Origin: a virus
Taxonomy: Duplodnaviria > Caudoviricetes
Virus record (IMG/VR): IMGVR_UViG_3300005711_000021
Coordinates: 1-64,000 of that record
Length of the DNA stretch: 64,000 nt
Reading direction: 5' to 3' (one strand)
Below the pieces are notes generated by a model, which saw only the letters and a list, made by a program, of their open reading frames with translations, had not been told where the DNA came from and did not search any database. A program made the position numbers and the translations under genes. Of this stretch, positions 3,732-17,474 are shown piece by piece (positions within the stretch are counted from its first letter, which is position 1; every line of letters begins with the position of its first letter).

Positions 3732-4322
3732 ATGAATTTAGTAGATAAATATTTAATAGAATGTGTAGCGAATCGTAATTATAATTGGTGTACTCAAAAC
3801 TTATACATAAATGTAGACCAACCTTTTCTTCCTACATCTGGACAAGAAGAAATTTTATTAACTCGTGATAATGTAAAAGCATTTTTAATGCCGAGAGGAT
3901 CAGGAGCATCAACAATTATTGCTATGGATGCAATAACAGAAGCTTCATTAAATCCTATGAGTGAAGTTATGATATTTGTTCAAAATCAATTAGCAGTTTC
4001 TCAAATGTTAAAAAGAATAAAAGATATTTTAAACTATTCTTCTATAGAAACATTAAAAACGTCATTAAGAACAAATAGAGATCATATCTTATTAGATAAT
4101 CAATCAATTATAAAAATAGTAACACCAAATCCAGCTTGTTATGTAGGTTATCGTCCAAATGCAATGTATATAGATAATTTCGATATGATTAATAGCGAAG
4201 ATCTAAGTAATATCTTTAATAGATTGATGTATAGAACAAACAAAGTATTAATTATTGGAAACAATGTTAATAGCTATGAAGCAACTCAAAGAATTGTAAA
4301 CATCAATCAAAATCAAATTTAA
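3732..4322 (+). CDS. degenerate terminase-ATPase-like protein without nuclease domain
   Basis: Aligns by eye with the TerL N-domain: PRGSGAST (Walker A lacking Lys); GYRPNAMYIDNFDMI versus TerL GQRADAIYLDEVDYM. Confidence 0.65.
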   Translation: MNLVDKYLIECVANRNYNWCTQNLYINVDQPFLPTSGQEEILLTRDNVKAFLMPRGSGASTIIAMDAITEASLNPMSEVMIFVQNQLAVSQMLKRIKDILNYSSIETLKTSLRTNRDHILLDNQSIIKIVTPNPACYVGYRPNAMYIDNFDMINSEDLSNIFNRLMYRTNKVLIIGNNVNSYEATQRIVNINQNQI

Positions 4323-4681: not shown

Positions 4682-5344
4682 ATGGATGCATTAAAGAAAG
4701 TTGGAATGATTGGAGCTATAAGTACAACAGCTGCTTTAACTGGTGCGGGTGCTGGCATAGGTTATGTCGGTGGTGCAGCATGGGGTGGTAATACACCAGG
4801 TTCAGACATTCAAAAAAATGCAACAGTTGGTGCAATAGGTGGAGCAGCATTAGGTGCTACAGTTGGTATAGTTGGCGGAGTTGCTGCAATGAATCCTGTA
4901 AAAACTGCATCTGTTGTTGGTGGTGCTGCTTTAGGAGTTGCAGAAACAGCAGGAGCAGGTATTATAGGTGGAGCTGAGATTGCAGGTGCAGGCATAATAG
5001 GATTTACAACAAAAGGAGTTGCTCCTCTTGCTGTATATGGAGCACAAAAATATGCAAGTATTGGAGCAGGTGCTGTAAAAGGTATTGATAAGTTATTATT
5101 AAAAGATGATTTAAGAGAGTCTAATCTTTTAGGTAAAAAGTTAAACTTAGCAGGAAAAGGATTAGTTTATGGTTCTGCTTTAATGGCAGGAGCGAAAGAA
5201 GCTTTTAATGATTTTAATAGCAATCGCATGGGACAACGTGATGGACAAATTACTCGTGCAACACCTAGAACACCATCTTATGCAAATAATGCTGGAGCAA
5301 CTGGTGATTTAGTATTTGCAATGAATCGTAATAGAAGGGGGTAG
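4682..5344 (+). CDS. glycine-zipper hydrophobic protein, possible ejected or membrane-inserting virion protein
   Basis: Many GxxxG repeats in hydrophobic stretches (VGAIGGAALGATVGIVGGVAA). Confidence 0.65.
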   Translation: MDALKKVGMIGAISTTAALTGAGAGIGYVGGAAWGGNTPGSDIQKNATVGAIGGAALGATVGIVGGVAAMNPVKTASVVGGAALGVAETAGAGIIGGAEIAGAGIIGFTTKGVAPLAVYGAQKYASIGAGAVKGIDKLLLKDDLRESNLLGKKLNLAGKGLVYGSALMAGAKEAFNDFNSNRMGQRDGQITRATPRTPSYANNAGATGDLVFAMNRNRRG

Positions 5345-5349
5345 ATTTT

Positions 5350-5826
5350 ATGAGCGTTAGTTCTCAATTAGTAAAACGTAATGCAAAAAAAGGTATAAAA
5401 AAAGGAACAGAAGAAGCTGCTAAAAAATCAGGTTCTTTACTTGGGACCGCATTTAGTGTTGGTATGCCATTATACTTTGGTGCACAAGAATATAAGTCTG
5501 CACGAGAAGAAGGTAATGGTGTATTAATGTCAGGAGCTAGAGCTGTTGGTGATTTTGCTGTATCAGAAATGATGGGGTGGGGTTATCTAGGATTACAACT
5601 TGCTCCTATGATTCCAAAAGCAGCAGTAGGTGTTGCTGAAGGATTAAATACTATGTCACGTAATATGAATCGTGCATCAGTACAAGGTCCATTTTCAAAT
5701 GCAACATTTAATGATACACAACAAACTTATACAATGAGACAAGCAGGTATGCAACTTGCTCAAGCTAGTAAATATAACTTACAGCAAACACTTATGGGTA
5801 ATGAAGCTCAATATCTAAAATATTAA
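5350..5826 (+). CDS. hypothetical protein, possible internal virion protein
   Basis: ORF with amphipathic and hydrophobic helices. Confidence 0.65.
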   Translation: MSVSSQLVKRNAKKGIKKGTEEAAKKSGSLLGTAFSVGMPLYFGAQEYKSAREEGNGVLMSGARAVGDFAVSEMMGWGYLGLQLAPMIPKAAVGVAEGLNTMSRNMNRASVQGPFSNATFNDTQQTYTMRQAGMQLAQASKYNLQQTLMGNEAQYLKY

Positions 5827-5844: not shown

Positions 5845-6984
5845 ATGGCAAGTTTAACAGATCAAGAATTAACAGGTTACAAGCCATCTGATAGTGGTAG
5901 TGGTATTCTAGTTCCAGAGCAGATAAAAATACAACAATCTAATAGAACTCAAAAAATGTTACCTTCTGATATTGCTCAAAAGAAAAAAGAACTTAGAAAG
6001 AAATTAGAAGGCGTTGAAAACAAAACTTATCATTATAAACAACAAAAAGAATATGAAAAAATATTCTCTGAAGAAAATCTAGATAATTTCTATAATTCTC
6101 CTGCAAAAAAATATGCTAGATCAAAAGAAGAAAATATTAAAGCTACTGATAAGATAGAAGAAAAAAGAATAAAAAATAGAGAAAGTAGAAAATCTCAAGC
6201 AGAGTTTGCTCACTCTAACGGATTAGATAAAAGAAAAACTAATGATTATTTTGAAGCATTAAAAACAAATCCTACCTTATCAAATGACAAAGATTTTGTT
6301 AATTATATGAATACGCATCAAGGAGAAAGTGGAACTAACTATGCTTCAGGTTATATCGGTCAAGAAACATTAAATAAAAAGATGTCTGTTCAACAACAGA
6401 ATGATCTTAAAGAGCGTATTAAATCCAGTCGAGCAGAAAAAGAAAAAATAATTGCTCAACAAGAAAGAAGCGGTTTTGTTGAAGCGACTCCTGGAAAAAA
6501 AATGCGTAACATGGAAGAAAGAATCGCTTATCAAAATTCTGATAGAGGAAAGGCAGAAAAACTACTTAAGTCCAGAGATGAAAATGGTGTATTAAGATAT
6601 GATATAGGTTCACAAGTTTATAACGACGTTGAAAAGCAAGTTGGACCTAGACCATTAGATCCTGATTTGCCAGATTATGATTATTCTCGCCTAGAGAAGA
6701 TTGTAGGAAAAGACAAGAAGATGCAAAAAAAGATTGCTAATTTAAAAGCTCAAGATGCTGCAGAAAAAGCAGCTAGAGAAACAGCAGAAAACGTAACTGA
6801 AGCAGCAGGTAAAGCTGTTAAAAATAATGCTGAGGATGCAGCAAAAAAACTTACTAAAACAAAAGTTGGACGAATTGCAGCAGCAGTGGGTGTAGGAGCT
6901 TTAGTAGTAAGTAATATGAATAAGAATAAAGGACAGCAACCGAATGGTCAACTTTATGGCCAACAAACGCCTTATAGTTATTAA
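5845..6984 (+). CDS. K/E/Q-rich protein with C-terminal hydrophobic helix
   Basis: SD AAAGGAGG; C-terminal segment RIAAAVGVGALVVSN. Confidence 0.7.
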   Translation: MASLTDQELTGYKPSDSGSGILVPEQIKIQQSNRTQKMLPSDIAQKKKELRKKLEGVENKTYHYKQQKEYEKIFSEENLDNFYNSPAKKYARSKEENIKATDKIEEKRIKNRESRKSQAEFAHSNGLDKRKTNDYFEALKTNPTLSNDKDFVNYMNTHQGESGTNYASGYIGQETLNKKMSVQQQNDLKERIKSSRAEKEKIIAQQERSGFVEATPGKKMRNMEERIAYQNSDRGKAEKLLKSRDENGVLRYDIGSQVYNDVEKQVGPRPLDPDLPDYDYSRLEKIVGKDKKMQKKIANLKAQDAAEKAARETAENVTEAAGKAVKNNAEDAAKKLTKTKVGRIAAAVGVGALVVSNMNKNKGQQPNGQLYGQQTPYSY

Positions 6985-6999
6985 GAGGAGGTTTTTCTT

Positions 7000-7206
7000 A
7001 TGGCAATAACTAAAAAGTTATCAACCGTAGAGGCAAAACGTATTCAAGAAATTATGCAAGACCCTGTAAAATGGGCACAAGTCTTTGTAACAATTTTTGA
7101 TAATGCTGCCAAAAAGAAAACGCCTTGGATTGCACGATGGTATCAAGTAGAAATGCTTAGAGACAGAAGTCTCAAAAAAGTAGCTCGATGTGGTAGACGT
7201 ACGGGT
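7000..7206 (+). CDS. terL: terminase large subunit, exon 1 (69 codons)
   Basis: Q-motif WYQVEML and the first part of Walker A (RCGRRTG); joins KTET at 8549. Confidence 0.9.
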
Positions 7207-7490
7207 AAAGTGTTTTGCCCATATGCCACGAATTGACGGGGAAAGGCTTAGAGCTCTTTCTACTAACTTATGATGGTGACATACATAAGGGCGTTGCTAA
7301 TCACAACGATATAGTAAAAAAGAAAGAGATTGTTTAATCCGCAGCGATGTATCTTAAAAAGGTTTGGGAGAGCTATTAAATTTTTAAGATAAGCGTTCAG
7401 AGACTACCAGCTTAGCTGGCGATATAAAAAGTAATTTTTATGTTGGGTGTGGCACTTTCAAAATCATATAATTCCTAAAGGAGAGACTTT

Positions 7491-8006
7491 ATGTTATTCA
7501 AAAAAACAAGAAATTTAAAAGACAAAATTTTTAGCACAACAATCGATTTTGTTGATTTTGGAGAACGTGATGACTTAGGAGAAATTAAGCAAGACTCTAA
7601 AGAAAAAGAGCAAGATTTAGTAGATAACTTTGGAGCACCAAAAATTTCAGTAGGAAAAGAATTTACAGGTCATGCACAAGTAGAAGATGGAAAAGTAAAA
7701 CTTGTAGCGTATACAAATGGTTTAAAAGAAACATGTATTAGTTTTATTCTTTCTGATAAAGAACTTGATGTAACAACAGGATTTTCTGCAGGTATCTCAG
7801 TAGATGCTAAAAAAGAAAAAGCTGTAGAAGGTAAATTAACTGCTGAACAAGTAGCAGAAGCTAAATGTTTAATTTTTGAAGAAGAAATTAAAAAACGTTT
7901 AACAGCAGCTATTGAAGGATTAAAAGCTAAATATACTGCATTTGAATTAGAAGAGCTAGAAGAAATTGCAATTCCTGTTCCTCCAAGCATAAGTCATTCT
8001 CATTAA
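7491..8006 (+). CDS. intron-encoded protein A (no homing-endonuclease motif)
   Basis: SD AAAGGAG; 171 aa, acidic; lies between P3' and J8/7 of intron 1. Confidence 0.85.
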   Translation: MLFKKTRNLKDKIFSTTIDFVDFGERDDLGEIKQDSKEKEQDLVDNFGAPKISVGKEFTGHAQVEDGKVKLVAYTNGLKETCISFILSDKELDVTTGFSAGISVDAKKEKAVEGKLTAEQVAEAKCLIFEEEIKKRLTAAIEGLKAKYTAFELEELEEIAIPVPPSISHSH

Positions 8007-8031
8007 TTAAAACTTTAAAGGAGGTAATTAT

Positions 8032-8448
8032 ATGCAATTAAGAATTAATACAAGTATAAAAAAATCTATTATTACAGTAGAACTTGAAACAGTTAACTTT
8101 TGTGCAATAGAAGATAAAATGCTTGATCAATTTGGAGAACCTGTATTTGATTTTGAAAAAATGTATCAACAAGAATTTCCTGTAAGCATACATAAAAAGA
8201 TTAGAACAAACTTTAAAGTTAAAGTTAGATTCGATGGCACTAAAGATATTGATAAAGCATCATTAGCTGTTAACGAATTTATCGATGATATTAAAGAAGC
8301 TTTACCATTATTAATGGAAACATTCATGGATAAAGCAGAAATGATTGATTTAAATGCTGGAACAGAAACAGTCAATATTATTTCTCACTATCATCCTAAT
8401 CAATACAGTAATAATCCAAGACATCCTGATATAGGATACTATCATTAA
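8032..8448 (+). CDS. intron-encoded protein B, apparent paralogue of A
   Basis: SD AAAGGAGG; EDKMLDQFGEP resembles EQDLVDNFGAP of protein A. Confidence 0.85.
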   Translation: MQLRINTSIKKSIITVELETVNFCAIEDKMLDQFGEPVFDFEKMYQQEFPVSIHKKIRTNFKVKVRFDGTKDIDKASLAVNEFIDDIKEALPLLMETFMDKAEMIDLNAGTETVNIISHYHPNQYSNNPRHPDIGYYH

Positions 8449-8548
8449 TCTCCCATAATAAAAGAAGATATAGTCCGAACATCTAGGTAACACCTAGAGA
8501 GCTAGGGTAGAAATGCCCTAGCCTTCCCTACGGGGAAGTAACACAATG

Positions 8549-8848
8549 AAAACAGAAACCATGTGTATCGAAATGCTTTGGAAAGCGTTTACGAAACCAT
8601 ACCATCGTATATTAGTTGTAACACCATATGAAAACCAAGTGCGTTTAATATTTACACGTTTAATGGAAATTGTAAGAGACTCTCCATTAATATCAAATGA
8701 ATTAAAGAAATCAACAAAAAACCCTTATTGGATAGAATTTAAAAACGGTGCAATCATTCTTGGTTTTACAACTGGAGCAAGTTCAGGTTCTGGTGGAGCA
8801 TCTATTCGTGGACAACGTGCTGATGCTATCTATTTAGACGAAGTGGAT
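8549..8848 (+). CDS. terL: terminase large subunit, exon 2 (100 codons)
   Basis: KTET completes Walker A; ends in Walker B IYLDEVD. Confidence 0.9.
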
Positions 8849-9179
8849 TAACAAATCATGATATAAAAGCTATTTTTAAAATAACATGTGGTCCACTATA
8901 AATTCCGTTAATTAGGTGGAAGCTGTAAAATGCTAACAACCTAGCGAAGTATTTATAGAAATATAAATATGTGCTGAACGACTAGAGGATGAGTCTAAAG
9001 ATTTTTTCTATGGCAATAAAATTCCTCCACGAAAGCGGGACACTTTCTTAATGTCTTATCGTCAAGAATCATTCATTAAGATAATGAGATAGTCTAGACT
9101 GGGTTGGAAACAACCAACCGATGAAAATGAGGGAAACCTCCAGAGGCTAAGATAAAGAGCTTAGCGTTAATAACAATCG
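8849..9179 (+). ncRNA. group I intron 2 of terL (group IA-like, no ORF), 331 nt
   Basis: P1 AGTGGAT(8842-8848)/GTCCACT(8891-8897) with U.G pair; P7 GACTA(8980-8984)/TAGTC(9090-9094); terminal G 9179; splicing gives DEVD|YM. Confidence 0.9.
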
Positions 9180-9629
9180 TATATGACAGAAGCTGACTTC
9201 GATTCTGTAATGGCAATTGCAGGTGAACGTCGAGATATTACAATATTCATGTCATCAACACCTACTGGTAAGCGTTCTAAGTTTTGGAAAGCATGTACTG
9301 ATCCTAAAATGGGATTTACTGAACATTATCATCCTTCTACTCATAACCCTAACTGGGGGCCAGAGATGGAAGCTGAATTTAGGGCTCAATTATCAGAACA
9401 AGGGTTCGTTCATGAAATCCTTGCAGATTTCGGAACACAAGATACAGGTGTATTTAATAAAGATAAAGTAGATTTAGCATCACAACAATTATGTTATGCT
9501 TATAATGATTTAGATTATTATCAGCTTGAACGTTGTAAACATCAAAATTTAGTTCCACAAATTTTAAAATATGATAAAGCAAATAGAGCTCCTAATAACC
9601 CATTTCGCTGTATGGGCGTCGATTGGGAT
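9180..9629 (+). CDS. terL: terminase large subunit, exon 3 (150 codons)
   Basis: Coupling motif SSTPTG; ends at the nuclease motif MGVDWD. Confidence 0.9.
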
Positions 9630-10005
9630 TATGAAATATTGTCCCTTTTTGTAGTAATGCAATCAAAAGAACAAAGTGAATTGACGGGGAATTCCTTAGA
9701 GCCTTAATAACCAAATTATCATGGCAACATAGATAATGGCGTTGCTAACTACAACGGTACGGTAAAATAATTAAGGATTGGAAGATCCGCAGCCGAGCTA
9801 CTTAATTAAGTAGAAGGTTCAACGACTATCCCATAGGTCCTATCGTAGGACAACAGGAGTACGGCCAAGTGGCGGGTGAAAATCCCTTAATCGGAAGTGC
9901 TGCATCCTAATTATAGGATGATGATATAGTCTCAACATCTAGGGAAAGCCTAGAGCAGTTCGTAACAGAACGGTACAAGCGTAACGACCTTGTATGAAGA
10001 TCATG
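9630..10005 (+). ncRNA. group I intron 3 of terL (no ORF, related to intron 1), 376 nt
   Basis: P1 GGGAT(9625-9629)/GTCCC(9641-9645); P element AATTGACGGGGA 9679-9690; Q ATCCGCAGC; P7 GACTA(9824-9828)/TAGTC(9927-9931); terminal G 10005; splicing gives GVDWD|KFG. Confidence 0.9.
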
Positions 10006-10827
10006 AAATTTGGAGCAAGTTCATCTATAATAATTTTAGATTATGATGTTATACAGCAAAAGTTTAAAGTAATAAAAAGAGTAGAAGTTCCTCGTGGAGA
10101 TTATTCTTATGATAATGCTGTTAATCTTATTATTGAACTAAATGATATTTATAGACCATCATGGATCTATTGTGATGCAGGTAGTGGTGAATATCAAATA
10201 GAAAGATTACATATTTATGGTGAAGAAAATCCACATACTGGACTTCGTAATAAAGTAAAACGTTGGCAATTCAAACAAACAATTGATATTGTTGACCCTG
10301 TTACTTTTCAAGTTCACAAAGAACCGATGAAACCATTCATGGTTACACAATTACAAATTGTATTTGACCGTGATAAAATGATTTTATCGCCATTCGATGA
10401 AGTGCTACATAAACAATTAATAGATTATGAAGTAGAGAAAATTGGTGCTAATGGTAATCCAGTCTTTACTTCTGTAAATGAACACTTCGTTGATGCACTC
10501 GGTTTAGCTTATTTAGCATTTGTACTGGAATTCCCAGAGTTAACAAATGTCGTAAAAAAACCTGAAGCAACAGCTATTATAGAAAGTTCTCCTGTACAAT
10601 TAGGTGGAGCAGGTCTTAATAAATTATTCCACTCTATCGAAACAAGTGCAGTAGCTTCTGGATTCAAAGCTGTGTTAAATCATGATCCAACAGAGTTACC
10701 TGGTGATAGACCTACTACGGTAAAAGTACCACTTAGTTATAGAAGTGGGGCTTCATCAAATGGTTCATGGGGATCTAGAGCAGCTGGTTCTAAACGAGGA
10801 AACTTTGGTGGACGCTCAATGTGGTAG
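10006..10827 (+). CDS. terL: terminase large subunit, exon 4 (RNase H-like nuclease domain)
   Basis: IYCDAGSG and NEHFVDALGLA nuclease motifs. Confidence 0.9.
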   Translation, partial: KFGASSSIIILDYDVIQQKFKVIKRVEVPRGDYSYDNAVNLIIELNDIYRPSWIYCDAGSGEYQIERLHIYGEENPHTGLRNKVKRWQFKQTIDIVDPVTFQVHKEPMKPFMVTQLQIVFDRDKMILSPFDEVLHKQLIDYEVEKIGANGNPVFTSVNEHFVDALGLAYLAFVLEFPELTNVVKKPEATAIIESSPVQLGGAGLNKLFHSIETSAVASGFKAVLNHDPTELPGDRPTTVKVPLSYRSGASSNGSWGSRAAGSKRGNFGGRSMW

Positions 10828-10932: not shown

Positions 10933-11970
10933 ATGAAGAAAATTTTTTATAGACCTAATCTAGGTTTACCAAAAAGATATGATACAGATGGATATGTAGA
11001 ACCTTATAGAGAGTCGATATCCTATGATGAAGAAACAAATGAATCAAAAGAAGAAACGCTTGAAGATATAGCTGAACAAATATTATCTTTACAAAATGTA
11101 ATCGTACGATTACCTGATGAAATGCAACCAGCTATTAATATAATGCTTAACACTTTACAATTCATTTTTATTCAAATCGATCCAGACTACATACCAGAAT
11201 CAAATAAGAATAATACAGATAGCACAGATGATATAGATACTAATGGTACAAACATTAATAGCACAAATAAAGAAAGTATAGAAGATGATTCTGATATCGT
11301 TATAACAGAAATAGATGACGAAGATGATGATGATGATGAAATGGAAAATAGTATATTGTTTTCTGATGTTGTACCAAATGTAATTATTAAAACTATACCA
11401 AAGGATAAAATTAAATTGATAAACAAAACATATTGTGTTACACTTTTAGAAATAACAAAAGATTACATTAATGAGTTAAAAAAAGTAACTACTCAATATT
11501 TTATGGATATGGGAATGTTAATAATGGAGCATGATAAACTCAATATAGATTTTCTTGAAAAGAAATATACATATAAAACAACAGATTTAAAAAGCAAAGA
11601 CTTACAACATGTTTCAGATTTTATCATTAAATCTCAAATCGTAAGAAATCAAAAACAACGATTAATGGATAAATTGATTAATGAAGAAGAATCTCTTAAT
11701 AAGATAAAAGCATGTGAAGTCGCAAGAGAATTAAGTATTCGTTATGCAAAAGAAGAATATCGTAACAATACTGTTTATCATGACTTATTTAGTAACATAT
11801 CTCTAAAAGAATCGAGATTATCCTATGAACAAAAAATGGATAATAATTTATACGAGTTATATAAATACATGAATAGCTCAGTAATATTATTAGATGAATG
11901 CCTACGTTTATATATGCGAGAGGCACAAGCTAAATCTATTTTAATTAAAGAAGAGGGGATTAAATTATGA
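10933..11970 (+). CDS. hypothetical protein with a very acidic internal tract
   Basis: 345-aa ORF with SD GAGGTG; contains DDEDDDDDE. Confidence 0.8.
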   Translation: MKKIFYRPNLGLPKRYDTDGYVEPYRESISYDEETNESKEETLEDIAEQILSLQNVIVRLPDEMQPAINIMLNTLQFIFIQIDPDYIPESNKNNTDSTDDIDTNGTNINSTNKESIEDDSDIVITEIDDEDDDDDEMENSILFSDVVPNVIIKTIPKDKIKLINKTYCVTLLEITKDYINELKKVTTQYFMDMGMLIMEHDKLNIDFLEKKYTYKTTDLKSKDLQHVSDFIIKSQIVRNQKQRLMDKLINEEESLNKIKACEVARELSIRYAKEEYRNNTVYHDLFSNISLKESRLSYEQKMDNNLYELYKYMNSSVILLDECLRLYMREAQAKSILIKEEGIKL

Positions 11971-12269
11971 TTAGACCAACACATGACAATTTATTAGTAG
12001 AAATCCAAGTTCAAAATGAAAAAGAAAAGAAAACAGAATCAGGTATTATTTTAACAGCTAGCAAAAATCAACCTGTAGAAAAAGAAAGTACAGGTTTTGT
12101 TGTAGCAGTTGGTAAGGGAAGATATTTAGCAAGTGGACATATTATACCACCTTGTGCAAAAGTAGGAGAAAAGATTATCTTTAATAAATTCGCTGGAACA
12201 GAAATTGTTGATGGTGAAAGAACGTTTTTACTTATTAAAGAAAATGACGTATTAGGAATTATTGAATAA
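11967..12269 (+). CDS. groES: phage-encoded co-chaperonin GroES
   Basis: IRPTHDNLLV, mobile loop KTESGIIL, GFVVAVGKG, KFAGTEI and LLIKENDVLGIIE are all Cpn10 signatures. Confidence 0.92.
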   Translation: MIRPTHDNLLVEIQVQNEKEKKTESGIILTASKNQPVEKESTGFVVAVGKGRYLASGHIIPPCAKVGEKIIFNKFAGTEIVDGERTFLLIKENDVLGIIE

Positions 12270-15818: not shown

Positions 15819-17474
15819 ATGGCATTACATCCAAATTCGTTTGTAGGTCAAGATAGACTTCAACCAGGTTCTCGTGGTGAAACTTTCCAAGTTGATATCC
15901 CAGGATACAGAGATGGGGCTGACCGAGTAAACAGAACACAAAATAAACTTAACACAAATGCACATGATGTTCCAAACATTAAATATAGTTTTGATGACCG
16001 TCTTCCAGTATTATTTAAATACGGTTATGCATTTGGATACAATCAAATCGTTATTCCAAAAGGACGTATCGTAGCAGTAGATCCTCACATGGATTTAGTA
16101 GATTTCGATATGAAAAAAGCACATAACACATTAACACTTGCAAATGGTGGTGTGCCTGTAAAAGTAAGAGCACAAGGTGAAGCATATATTGCTTACGCTG
16201 CTAATGGCTTAGTATCTAAAGCAGGTGCTACAATGCCAGGTATCGGTAAAGAATGGATGCCAGTTGCAGGTTATACTGACACATATCCAGAATCAAAAGT
16301 ATTCCGTCCATTTAAAACAAAGAGAGCAAAAGCTCAATTAACAGATGCAGGTTTTACTATTGATACACAAAACACTGGTAGAGTTTTAAAAGACGATGCA
16401 GCTACAACTGTTCGTCCAGGAAACCACCCAATCGGTATTATGCAACGTAATGAATATACTCGTGATGATGATGCATTCAACGGTATCATGCCAGGAGCTG
16501 TTCTTACAGATGCAATGGTAGAAATGCCTTGGTTCTTATTTAAAGATAAAGCAGAAGGAAATCCATGGGGTTCTGCATACGGCGGATTATTCCCAGGTGC
16601 TCTTGTAAAATCAGATGAAAATGGTCGTTTTATTGTTTCTCCATTATCATTTGAAGAATTAGTAGCTTCTATGACAGTTCCTGAATACGAAGCAGAACGT
16701 CAACAAGTAGTTGGTCAAGTATACTCAGTATCTCAAGAACTTGTTCCAGAAGGTGCTGCTAAATATGCTCAATGGGCAATTTCAGATATCTTAAACTTTG
16801 AAGGATTCAATCCATCTCTTTATCGTCAAAACAACAGACGTGGTGAAGATGCTATTAGTAATTCTCCATACAAATCAAATGGTGAATATCCAGGATATCC
16901 ATATGATCCAGCATATATGAATTCAGATTTACACATGCTTTCTAGCTACCGTAACACATACGATCAAAGAATGCAACATGAATATAGATTTGATCATGGT
17001 ATCCCAGGTTTAACAGATGGTTACAATGCTGTTTCTACTCCAATCGAAGATAAACAAGTTGGTGTATTCGGTTGTCCATCAGTTGGAGAAAAAGGAGCTG
17101 CTACAATTGATTCAACTGTACCATATGCTGATATGTATTTCAGAACAAGAATTGAAAACGTAGAGCAAGGTTCATTACAAATCAAAGTAGGAGATGCAGC
17201 TTACGCTCCATGTACATTAGGTGCAACTATTGAATTAACACACACATCAGTAACAAAAACATTCTTACGTGTTAAATATGTAAATGAATTACAAGGTATT
17301 GTTGTTCTTGAAGTATTTGATAGAGCAGCAGCTGATGAATTCTTTAACTCATATGGTGTAGAAAACAAATTAGCTGTAAGCTTAAAATACAACAAACGTG
17401 GTATGGCTGGTGTTCCAACATTCATGGATTGGGACGGATGTATCGGTTCAGTAAAAATCTTACTTCAAAAATAA
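15819..17474 (+). CDS. capsid-associated structural protein (decoration or auxiliary)
   Basis: Lies between scaffold and major capsid genes; codon bias like highly expressed genes. Confidence 0.6.
   Translation: MALHPNSFVGQDRLQPGSRGETFQVDIPGYRDGADRVNRTQNKLNTNAHDVPNIKYSFDDRLPVLFKYGYAFGYNQIVIPKGRIVAVDPHMDLVDFDMKKAHNTLTLANGGVPVKVRAQGEAYIAYAANGLVSKAGATMPGIGKEWMPVAGYTDTYPESKVFRPFKTKRAKAQLTDAGFTIDTQNTGRVLKDDAATTVRPGNHPIGIMQRNEYTRDDDAFNGIMPGAVLTDAMVEMPWFLFKDKAEGNPWGSAYGGLFPGALVKSDENGRFIVSPLSFEELVASMTVPEYEAERQQVVGQVYSVSQELVPEGAAKYAQWAISDILNFEGFNPSLYRQNNRRGEDAISNSPYKSNGEYPGYPYDPAYMNSDLHMLSSYRNTYDQRMQHEYRFDHGIPGLTDGYNAVSTPIEDKQVGVFGCPSVGEKGAATIDSTVPYADMYFRTRIENVEQGSLQIKVGDAAYAPCTLGATIELTHTSVTKTFLRVKYVNELQGIVVLEVFDRAAADEFFNSYGVENKLAVSLKYNKRGMAGVPTFMDWDGCIGSVKILLQK

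Follow-up and report, generated by a model that had tools for sequence, protein, structure and literature searches.

Group I introns of phages are generally regarded as ribozymes that carry at most a homing endonuclease and that are gained and lost in cycles. What is to be made of one that encloses two genes of a different kind? The question is posed by a 64,000-nucleotide (nt) stretch of viral DNA, called the window here, which makes up the opening 64 kb of a viral contig of 118 kb from IMG/VR (~50% complete). Its terminase gene, TerL, is interrupted at window positions 7207–8548, within the codons of the Walker A motif, by a predicted cis-splicing-type group I intron (intron 1), and the loop of intron helix P8 (L8) holds two complete open reading frames (ORFs), A and B. 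The explanation that we consider probable, taken as a whole, is that a Walker A intron houses in its P8 loop two genes resident in the phage lineage, which would be translated from their own ribosome-binding sites, and that the ribozyme would close around them and restore TerL by splicing.

The source is an uncultured jumbo phage, kin of 0305phi8-36. Exon 4 of its TerL has 38% identity to Moorella phage MTATph1 and 29–34% to 0305phi8-36-type jumbo phages of Bacillus; a megablast search of the region against 50,697 phage records returned no close cultured relative. We compared the window with ~35 loci of relatives, designated by L and a number. The parts of TerL and its introns, and the flanking genes, described below lie on the plus strand of the window.

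A predicted group I intron within Walker A

TerL consists of four exons (7000–7206, 8549–8848, 9180–9629, and 10006–10827) separated by three introns: one in Walker A, one just past Walker B, and one in the GVDWD motif of the nuclease. Exon 1, of 69 codons, ends in ...ARCGRRTG, its last base being the U of the U.G pair in helix P1 of the intron. Exon 2 begins KTETMC... and ends in ...YLDEVD, the Walker B motif; exon 3 was set by uninterrupted relatives, and exon 4 encodes the nuclease domain. The exon 2/3 and 3/4 junctions were placed against the uninterrupted TerL of relatives (DEVD|YMTEADF and GVDWD|KFGASSS, the bar marking the junction). Neither of the two downstream introns contains an ORF. 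Intron 2 (8849–9179) scores 46.9 bits against the Rfam group I model RF00028, slightly below the cut-off of 50, and its removal gives the same junction as in uninterrupted relatives; intron 3 (9630–10005), with its 3' end set by homology, scores 65 bits, above the Rfam gathering score.

Intron 1 is 1342 nt long and IA2-like, with P7.1/P7.2 and P9.1/P9.2. Its internal guide, GUUUUGCCC (7212–7220), contains GCCC (7217–7220), which pairs with exon 1 GGGU (7203–7206) to form P1, and GUUUU (7212–7216), which pairs with exon 2 AAAAC (8549–8553) to form P10, a pairing read directly from the sequence. The 5' catalytic core (7224–7454) comprises P3 (7224–7229 with 7449–7454), P4, P5 with an extension, P6/P6a, the 5' strand of P7 (7402–7406), P7.1, P7.2, and P3'. 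The 3' core (8461–8548) comprises the 3' strand of P8 (8461–8464), J8/7 and P7' (8465–8476), P9 (8482–8498), P9.1 (8501–8522), P9.2 (8523–8538), and the terminal G (8548). The textbook core motifs AAUUGACGGGG, AAUCCGCAGC, and GUUCAGAGACUA lie 5' of the ORFs and GAUAUAGUCC lies 3' of them. Joining 7206 to 8549 yields ...ARCGRRTG|KTETMC..., colinear with the uninterrupted TerL of L020, L022, and others. At the 5' splice site the U at position −1 pairs with G in P1, and this U.G pair is unvarying in 9 loci; the junction GGY|...G|AAAAC is common to 13 of 13. P1 also covaries: in L024, a synonymous ACG to ACA change in the exon is compensated in the guide (ACAGGU/GCCUGU).

Profile hidden Markov models of the two intron halves, built from 8–9 loci, match the corresponding parts of intron 3 (E = 1.1e-16 and 9.8e-5). 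Covariation in the 5' half was assessed on nine homologous copies, the window and eight other metagenomic loci. Compensatory changes, with both sides altered, were found at 43 of 61 predicted pairs, values reached by 0 of 500 shuffles; 95.3% of cells were paired, as compared to 36–51% when the partners were slid. The 3' half shows compensatory change at 12 of its 20 pairs. The P7 pairing GACUA/UAGUC does not vary at all. The first-pass annotation of this locus had proposed a group I intron with a split core at 7207–8548; P1, P10, the terminal G, core homology to intron 3, and covariation all bear this out.

Might there instead be no splicing here, with split genes yielding TerL as several polypeptides and the conserved RNA structure serving some other role? 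We consider this extremely improbable. The break between exons 1 and 2 separates the P-loop codons for G and K, and the exon 1 frame meets an in-frame stop (7234–7236), kept in every copy, 10 codons inside the intron. Exon 2 in several relatives has neither a start codon of its own nor a Shine–Dalgarno (SD) sequence at the junction, and the flanks of the insert show every group I hallmark, with covariation.

Three other matches were set aside. A sub-threshold fit to the Moco riboswitch at 8438–8557 (22.8 and 21.4 bits; cut-off 36) is a chance fit to the P9–P9.2 hairpins. A 21-mer resembling P9.1 at 16512–16532 sits in an unbroken ORF of 551 amino acids (aa) and is likewise a chance match. A core pattern scan of viral contigs proved too unspecific, returning at least 117 unrelated loci, only one of them with GRRTG upstream.

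Predicted closure of the ribozyme around its insert

The ~1 kb between the two halves of the core had been read in the first-pass annotation as an L8 insert with two complete genes, each with a strong SD sequence, at the position where the related intron 3 has a short closed hairpin. Both parts of this reading stand. The P8 of intron 3 is a short closed hairpin at 9903–9920, and in all 16 of the 16 intron-bearing loci tested the bases that follow P3' are complementary to those just 5' of J8/7, so that P8 closes and the insert is assigned by this pairing to L8. P8 was tested by an anchored run-length test; a generic duplex-energy test was uninformative in such AT-rich sequence. In ten loci the complementary run extends to 11–19 base pairs (bp) of sequences unrelated between loci, for example UUUUGUUCUGAAUAUG/CAUAUUCAGAACAAGA in L180, 15 bp in L024, and 19 bp in L147. 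P8 is only 4–8 bp in the window's group and in L182, and in the window's group it is non-significant alone; in the window itself the 5' strand is CUUU (7455–7458), with its partner at 8461–8464.

A second, long-range pairing covaries as well. GGGAGA in the P6a loop (7366–7371) is complementary to UCUCCC (8449–8454), which lies directly 3' of the ORF B stop; the counterparts are GGGGGA/UCCCCC in L014, GGGGAGA/UCUCCCC in L009, and GGGGAG/CUCCCC in L018. The UCUCC of the window could alternatively pair with the SD sequence of ORF A (7480–7484) and mask it; no covariation was found for that pairing. As side observations, the P6a-loop pairing covaries in six loci and is restricted to the subclade with short P8, and its two strands resemble an SD sequence (GGGAGA) and an anti-SD sequence (UCUCCC past the ORF B stop). 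If translated and folded as predicted, intron 1 would be a natural case of a ribozyme that accommodates a translated insert of 1 kb by means of lineage-specific long-range pairings.

The proteins encoded by ORFs A and B

ORF A (7491–8006; 171 aa) is preceded by the SD sequence AAAGGAGAG (7477–7485), and ORF B (8032–8448; 138 aa) by AAAGGAGGT (8017–8025). No plus-strand terminator was found inside intron 1, and promoter-like sites there are not in excess. Both genes are under purifying selection (ratio of non-synonymous to synonymous substitution rates against the closest relative, 0.29 for A and 0.26 for B). Close homologues at 34–88% identity number 18 for A and 17 for B. A profile of B drew 74 clusters at 50% identity from 1.8 billion representatives, mostly of ~118 aa and none of them named; A and B thus define an unnamed protein family tied to TerL in widespread gut and environmental jumbo phages. 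A tblastn search with A and B against the 50,697 phage records found no match, and there is no second copy or paralogue of either elsewhere on the 118 kb contig.

The AlphaFold2 models of both proteins are confident (mean predicted local distance difference test score 86.7 for A and 82.2 for B) and have one common topology, in which a beta-hairpin at the N-terminus leads to a helix and then to additional beta-strands, three of them in B and a larger number in A, with a long helix at the C-terminus. The first ~60 residues of A and B are aligned by hhalign (E = 3.6e-4, probability 37%), and the two share their top structural neighbours, although these are weak. Since topology, hhalign link, and structural neighbours coincide, A and B are probably paralogues that share a single fold. 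Both proteins have, solely in the window's clade, additional C-terminal tails rich in His, Pro, and Tyr, encoded at 8350–8448 in B (...HYHPNQYSNNPRHPDIGYYH) and 7975–8006 in A (...PVPPSISHSH); the tails are modelled at low confidence, and the typical B of ~118 aa is tail-less.

What might these proteins do? Phage group I intron ORFs being typically endonucleases, the first-pass annotation had stressed that A and B are acidic and show no homing-endonuclease motifs, and the searches agree: isoelectric points are 5.05 for A and 5.31 for B (family medians ~4.9), no known homing-endonuclease family was matched, and no fold match reached significance. Pfam, PHROGs, and NCBIfam gave no endonuclease match for A or B, and Pfam gave none for 85 family members (21 + 64), scattered chance matches aside. 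Foldseek searches of the models against the PDB and BFVD returned nothing at E ≤ 0.001, the best VIA-align Z scores (5.1–5.2) were to unrelated chains, comparison with PDB sequence profiles gave no match, and the ESM Atlas gave no usable one. In a wide alignment of B only E27, G35, P37, F61, and F67 are nearly invariant, one acidic residue among them, a pattern that looks non-enzymatic. Nor do A and B resemble a small terminase subunit by profile or model: no Terminase_2/4 or similar profile matched either protein, and neither has an N-terminal helix-turn-helix, both models starting with a beta-hairpin. In relatives where A and B lie outside the intron, B occupies the position of such a subunit, directly 5' of TerL, but a terminator-like hairpin usually stands between the two. 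Our tentative guess, one we would not press, is that A and B are TerL-linked accessories of packaging or head assembly (chaperones or adaptors), acting as oligomers or as an A–B pair, and not nucleases.

Two layouts of A and B among relatives

Homologues of A and B are found both intron-borne and free-standing. In the layout of the window, here called embedded, they lie within the Walker A intron (L006–8, L009–10, L011, L014, L015, L018–19, L021, L024, L147, L148, L175–180, and L182), with B alone embedded in L158, L165, and L166. In the free layout they precede TerL in the order X-A-B-TerL, where X is the homologue of the window gene at 5845–6984 (L017, L020, L022, L023, L025, L146, and L149; L013 incompletely). 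Free B without A occurs in L016, L163, L164, and L167, and L012 has A-B and then a terminator. A terminator-like hairpin usually separates free B from TerL, and free B is always ~270 nt from the intron insertion site. In the ~13 free-layout loci the Walker A site never contains an intron (0 cases); TerL there is uninterrupted or has its K and T codons separated by an intein. Conversely, B is present in every Walker A-site intron (16 of 16 loci). Among the ~35 loci there is none with free A/B plus a Walker A intron, none with both a free and an embedded copy, and none whose intron at Walker A is ORF-less or bears an endonuclease. Near TerL, X, A, and B are absent from the sister phages L155–162 and L168–174, and neither A nor B was detected near TerL in 0305phi8-36 or KLEB27-3.

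Because A and B stand free directly 5' of TerL in relatives and their trees follow the TerL tree, they appear to be genes resident in the lineage and not travelling cargo. The earlier idea that the intron had been repurposed as a vehicle for a small operon therefore holds in part: the intron does contain two genes, but these belong to the lineage. Intron 1 with A-B is retained in all members of the window's clade, and introns 2 and 3 come and go (L009 is without both, L006 without intron 2). On the side, intron 3 of L006 contains a 230-aa ORF (6883–7575) with faint LAGLIDADG matches in Pfam, and ORFs of endonuclease size, judged by size only, occur sporadically in the TerL introns of other relatives (269 aa at L023:5784–6593; 274 aa at L151:2894–3718).

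The same distribution bears on the suggestion that A and B are splicing cofactors, maturase-like proteins or RNA chaperones that assist the folding of a ribozyme with so large an insert. In favour of this, the intron encodes them, and their weak structural neighbours include RNA-binding folds (Z 4–5). Free copies nevertheless occur in phages with an intron-less TerL (L020, L022, L025, L146, and L149), and the proteins are acidic, with no similarity to LAGLIDADG maturases. The proposal of new splicing factors, raised in the first-pass annotation, is thereby weakened, and we now regard it as very unlikely.

The P-loop of TerL is also a hot spot for inteins, inserted as GK|C...HN|T only 3 nt from the intron site (L016:6714–7922, L017:6719–7927, L169:4160–5398, L183:4202–4741, and L185:3165–4445). 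Some contain LAGLIDADG and one is a mini-intein.

Repeated switching between layouts

On a TerL tree of 33 rows, 25 of 30 branches of which are well supported, the embedded and free layouts interleave, with at least 7 changes. Sister loci of opposite layout include L166/L167 (support 100/100), L018/L020 (97/92), and L024/L146 (100/99). The B tree recovers the same clades as the TerL tree with at least 5 changes, and a combined A and B tree agrees; a single clade of embedded B spreading with the intron is rejected by the B tree. Intron subtypes broadly track TerL clades, with mild discordance for L024. Identity in exon 1 also tracks identity in exon 2 in pairs of opposite layout, their ratio being 0.79–1.32 as compared to 0.73–1.12 in pairs of the same layout, and exon 1, B, and exon 2 all therefore appear native to each lineage. 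Switching by way of foreign DNA patches carrying exon 1 is unsupported, the ratio being no lower in the opposite-layout pairs.

An nhmmer search of the free-layout loci found no intron remnants, with one exception. In L146 the hairpin GCCAGGCAGAAAUGACCUGGC (L146:3927–3948) lies between free B and the uninterrupted TerL and is P9.1-like; in 1.86 Mb of fetched DNA its 13-mer occurs elsewhere only in P9.1 of the intron 1 family. The block consisting of 5' untranslated region plus exon 1 in L024 is homologous to the block 3' of the L146 hairpin. This arrangement suggests that L146 arose by conversion from embedded to free through relocation of that block. More generally, switching could reflect gene flow acting on a layout polymorphism of long standing, or local transpositions that occurred repeatedly. 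The TerL genes of L151 and L149 are close but lie in different gene orders, and TerL, by this comparison, recombines between genome types; the number of switches thus describes local gene trees and not the history of genomes.

The pattern is a puzzle: a strict all-or-none link between intron and gene position, no intermediates in ~35 loci, and at least 5–7 switches with native flanks. Are A and B, or B alone, a new homing or mobility factor, the free and intron-borne forms being two stages of a collaborative homing route to composite mobile introns? That route, in which an endonuclease gene first stands free next to its target gene and afterwards moves into the intron, is a described pathway (PMC3984707). 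The association is perfect, B being in 16 of 16 introns at the site and the free A/B loci all intron-less there; free B keeps its distance of ~270 nt from the insertion site, layouts switch frequently between close relatives, some sister phages are without A and B, and LAGLIDADG inteins also enter at this hot spot. Set against this are the 85 family members without an endonuclease match, the family-wide isoelectric point of ~4.9 with just one near-invariant acidic residue across the wide B alignment, and a vertical phylogeny congruent with TerL. The Walker A of free-layout loci is mostly uninterrupted, and the ORF-less intron that the collaborative model requires is absent. Ordinary endonuclease genes, moreover, are carried sporadically by introns 2 and 3, unlike the pattern of A and B. 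The mobility factors considered in the first-pass annotation thus lose ground through acidity and the lack of conserved residues of catalytic type; we keep the reading at low weight, as quite unlikely.

A related alternative, unlikely in our view, treats the Walker A intron and B, alone or together with A, as one co-evolving unit, in which B would be a mobility or maintenance factor not resembling a nuclease and switching would be active and recurrent. If true, it would be a new route for group I introns and neighbouring genes to exchange places. An answer to the puzzle would show how introns capture and release neighbouring genes, and how this affects the persistence of the intron.

Proposed order of events in expression

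For resident genes housed in L8, we propose the following order. A late transcript would run from X through exon 1, the intron with A and B, and exon 2 onward. Translation of A and B would start at the strong ribosome-binding site that each gene possesses, with either the precursor or the excised intron as messenger, and a ribosome on exon 1 would halt 10 codons into the intron. The first-pass annotation had further suggested that the cargo could be translated while splicing limits the output of TerL. The ribozyme would close around its 1 kb insert via P8 and, in the window's subclade, via the pairing of the P6a loop with the bases past the B stop; it would then join 7206 to 8549, restoring GRRTGKT, and so self-splice. 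As the intron contains them, precise loss of intron 1 would delete the lineage genes too, which may account for its persistence while introns 2 and 3 vary.

Several observations weigh against this explanation. Rfam model RF00028 does not match intron 1 as a whole, a missing call attributable to the 1 kb insert that splits the core, and the 5' half alone scores just 15.4 bits (E = 0.1); the P8 of the window is only 4 bp. The one link of A and B to packaging is their gene position. They may even be dispensable, since sister phages do not have them near TerL; one of these is L151, the TerL of which is close to that of L149. The at least 5–7 switches between embedded and free fit poorly with the idea that housed genes block intron loss, and the P9.1 remnant in L146 points to reversal from embedded to free, where housed genes would be expected to stabilise the intron.

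Comparison with known introns

Phage group I introns with an endonuclease gene in a peripheral loop include those of T4 td (with I-TevI), nrdB, and sunY, and those of Twort and SPO1 (reviewed in PMC3984707). Like them, intron 1 is of the self-splicing type, interrupts a conserved catalytic motif in a gene essential to the phage, has a peripheral-loop ORF with its own ribosome-binding site, and has an in-frame stop soon past the 5' splice site. Unlike them, its loop contains two non-nuclease genes that behave like vertically inherited residents of the lineage, and it is stable across a clade instead of sporadic.

Collaborative (trans) homing, in which a free-standing endonuclease gene neighbours a gene whose intron, at the target site of the enzyme, has no ORF, is described for T4 mobE/nrdB and cyanophage S-PM2 F-CphI/psbA (PMC3984707, PMC2790892, PMC6083498). 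The likeness is that members of one protein family occur either free-standing next to the target gene or in its intron, no more than a few hundred bases from where the intron inserts; the difference is that free A and B come without an ORF-less intron and without nuclease features, next to a target that is usually uninterrupted.

The comparable cases that we found of an intron enclosing conserved genes of its lineage, as the intron of an essential packaging gene does here, are fungal mitochondrial introns (rps3 and similar). A group I intron of the fungal mitochondrial rnl gene (mL2449) encodes the ribosomal protein rps3, and other such introns bear N-acetyltransferases (PMC8393795, PMC5626475). 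There too a host gene unrelated to mobility sits in a group I intron, the loss of which would cost the gene. That case differs in concerning an organelle rRNA gene and a single gene of known function, whereas intron 1 lies in a protein-coding gene of a phage, holds a paralogous gene pair, and belongs to a locus with repeated layout switches. IStrons, group I introns fused to an IS200/IS605-type transposon (PMC4227781), are bacterial group I introns with ORFs other than homing endonucleases; their ORFs are transposition genes at the 3' end of the intron and serve mobility, whereas A and B lie in L8 and are not transposase-like.

Group I introns and inteins are both described from the terL genes of jumbo phages (PMC12880540). 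The TerL P-loop inteins of L016, L017, L169–173, L181, L183, L185, and Bacillus phage KLEB27-3 share the hot spot of intron 1, 3 nt away; they differ in splicing at the protein level, in being LAGLIDADG or mini-inteins, and in leaving A and B outside. In line with the remark in the first-pass annotation that no example of the arrangement was known, the literature searched contained no phage intron that encloses resident non-nuclease genes.

Genes flanking TerL

Five genes 5' of TerL, a protein of ~190 aa (3732–4322) is paralogous to the ATPase N-domain of TerL: it is matched by tblastn with TerL residues ~47–181, and Pfam gives a match to Terminase_6N, weak in the L016 homologue. Its homologues are at L009:1820–2344, L016:2921–3487, and L017:2472–3038. 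In sister phages without X, A, and B, the ORF adjoining TerL upstream may be a homologue, with the TerL-like tblastn match confirmed in L151 only. One possible role is that of a small ATPase working with the terminase.

Three further genes upstream of TerL (4682–5344, 5350–5826, and 5845–6984) have C-terminal motifs that are conserved in all relatives (...ATGDLVFAMNRNRRG, ...LQQTLMGNEAQYLKY, and ...QLYGQQTPYSY, respectively) and that may be processing or incorporation signals. At matching positions 5' of TerL, 0305phi8-36 encodes gp113, gp114, and gp116, identified as virion proteins by mass spectrometry; the comparison is positional. On the other side of TerL, between it and the portal gene, lies a GroES-like (Cpn10) gene (11967–12269), which by Pfam matches is kept in all relatives.

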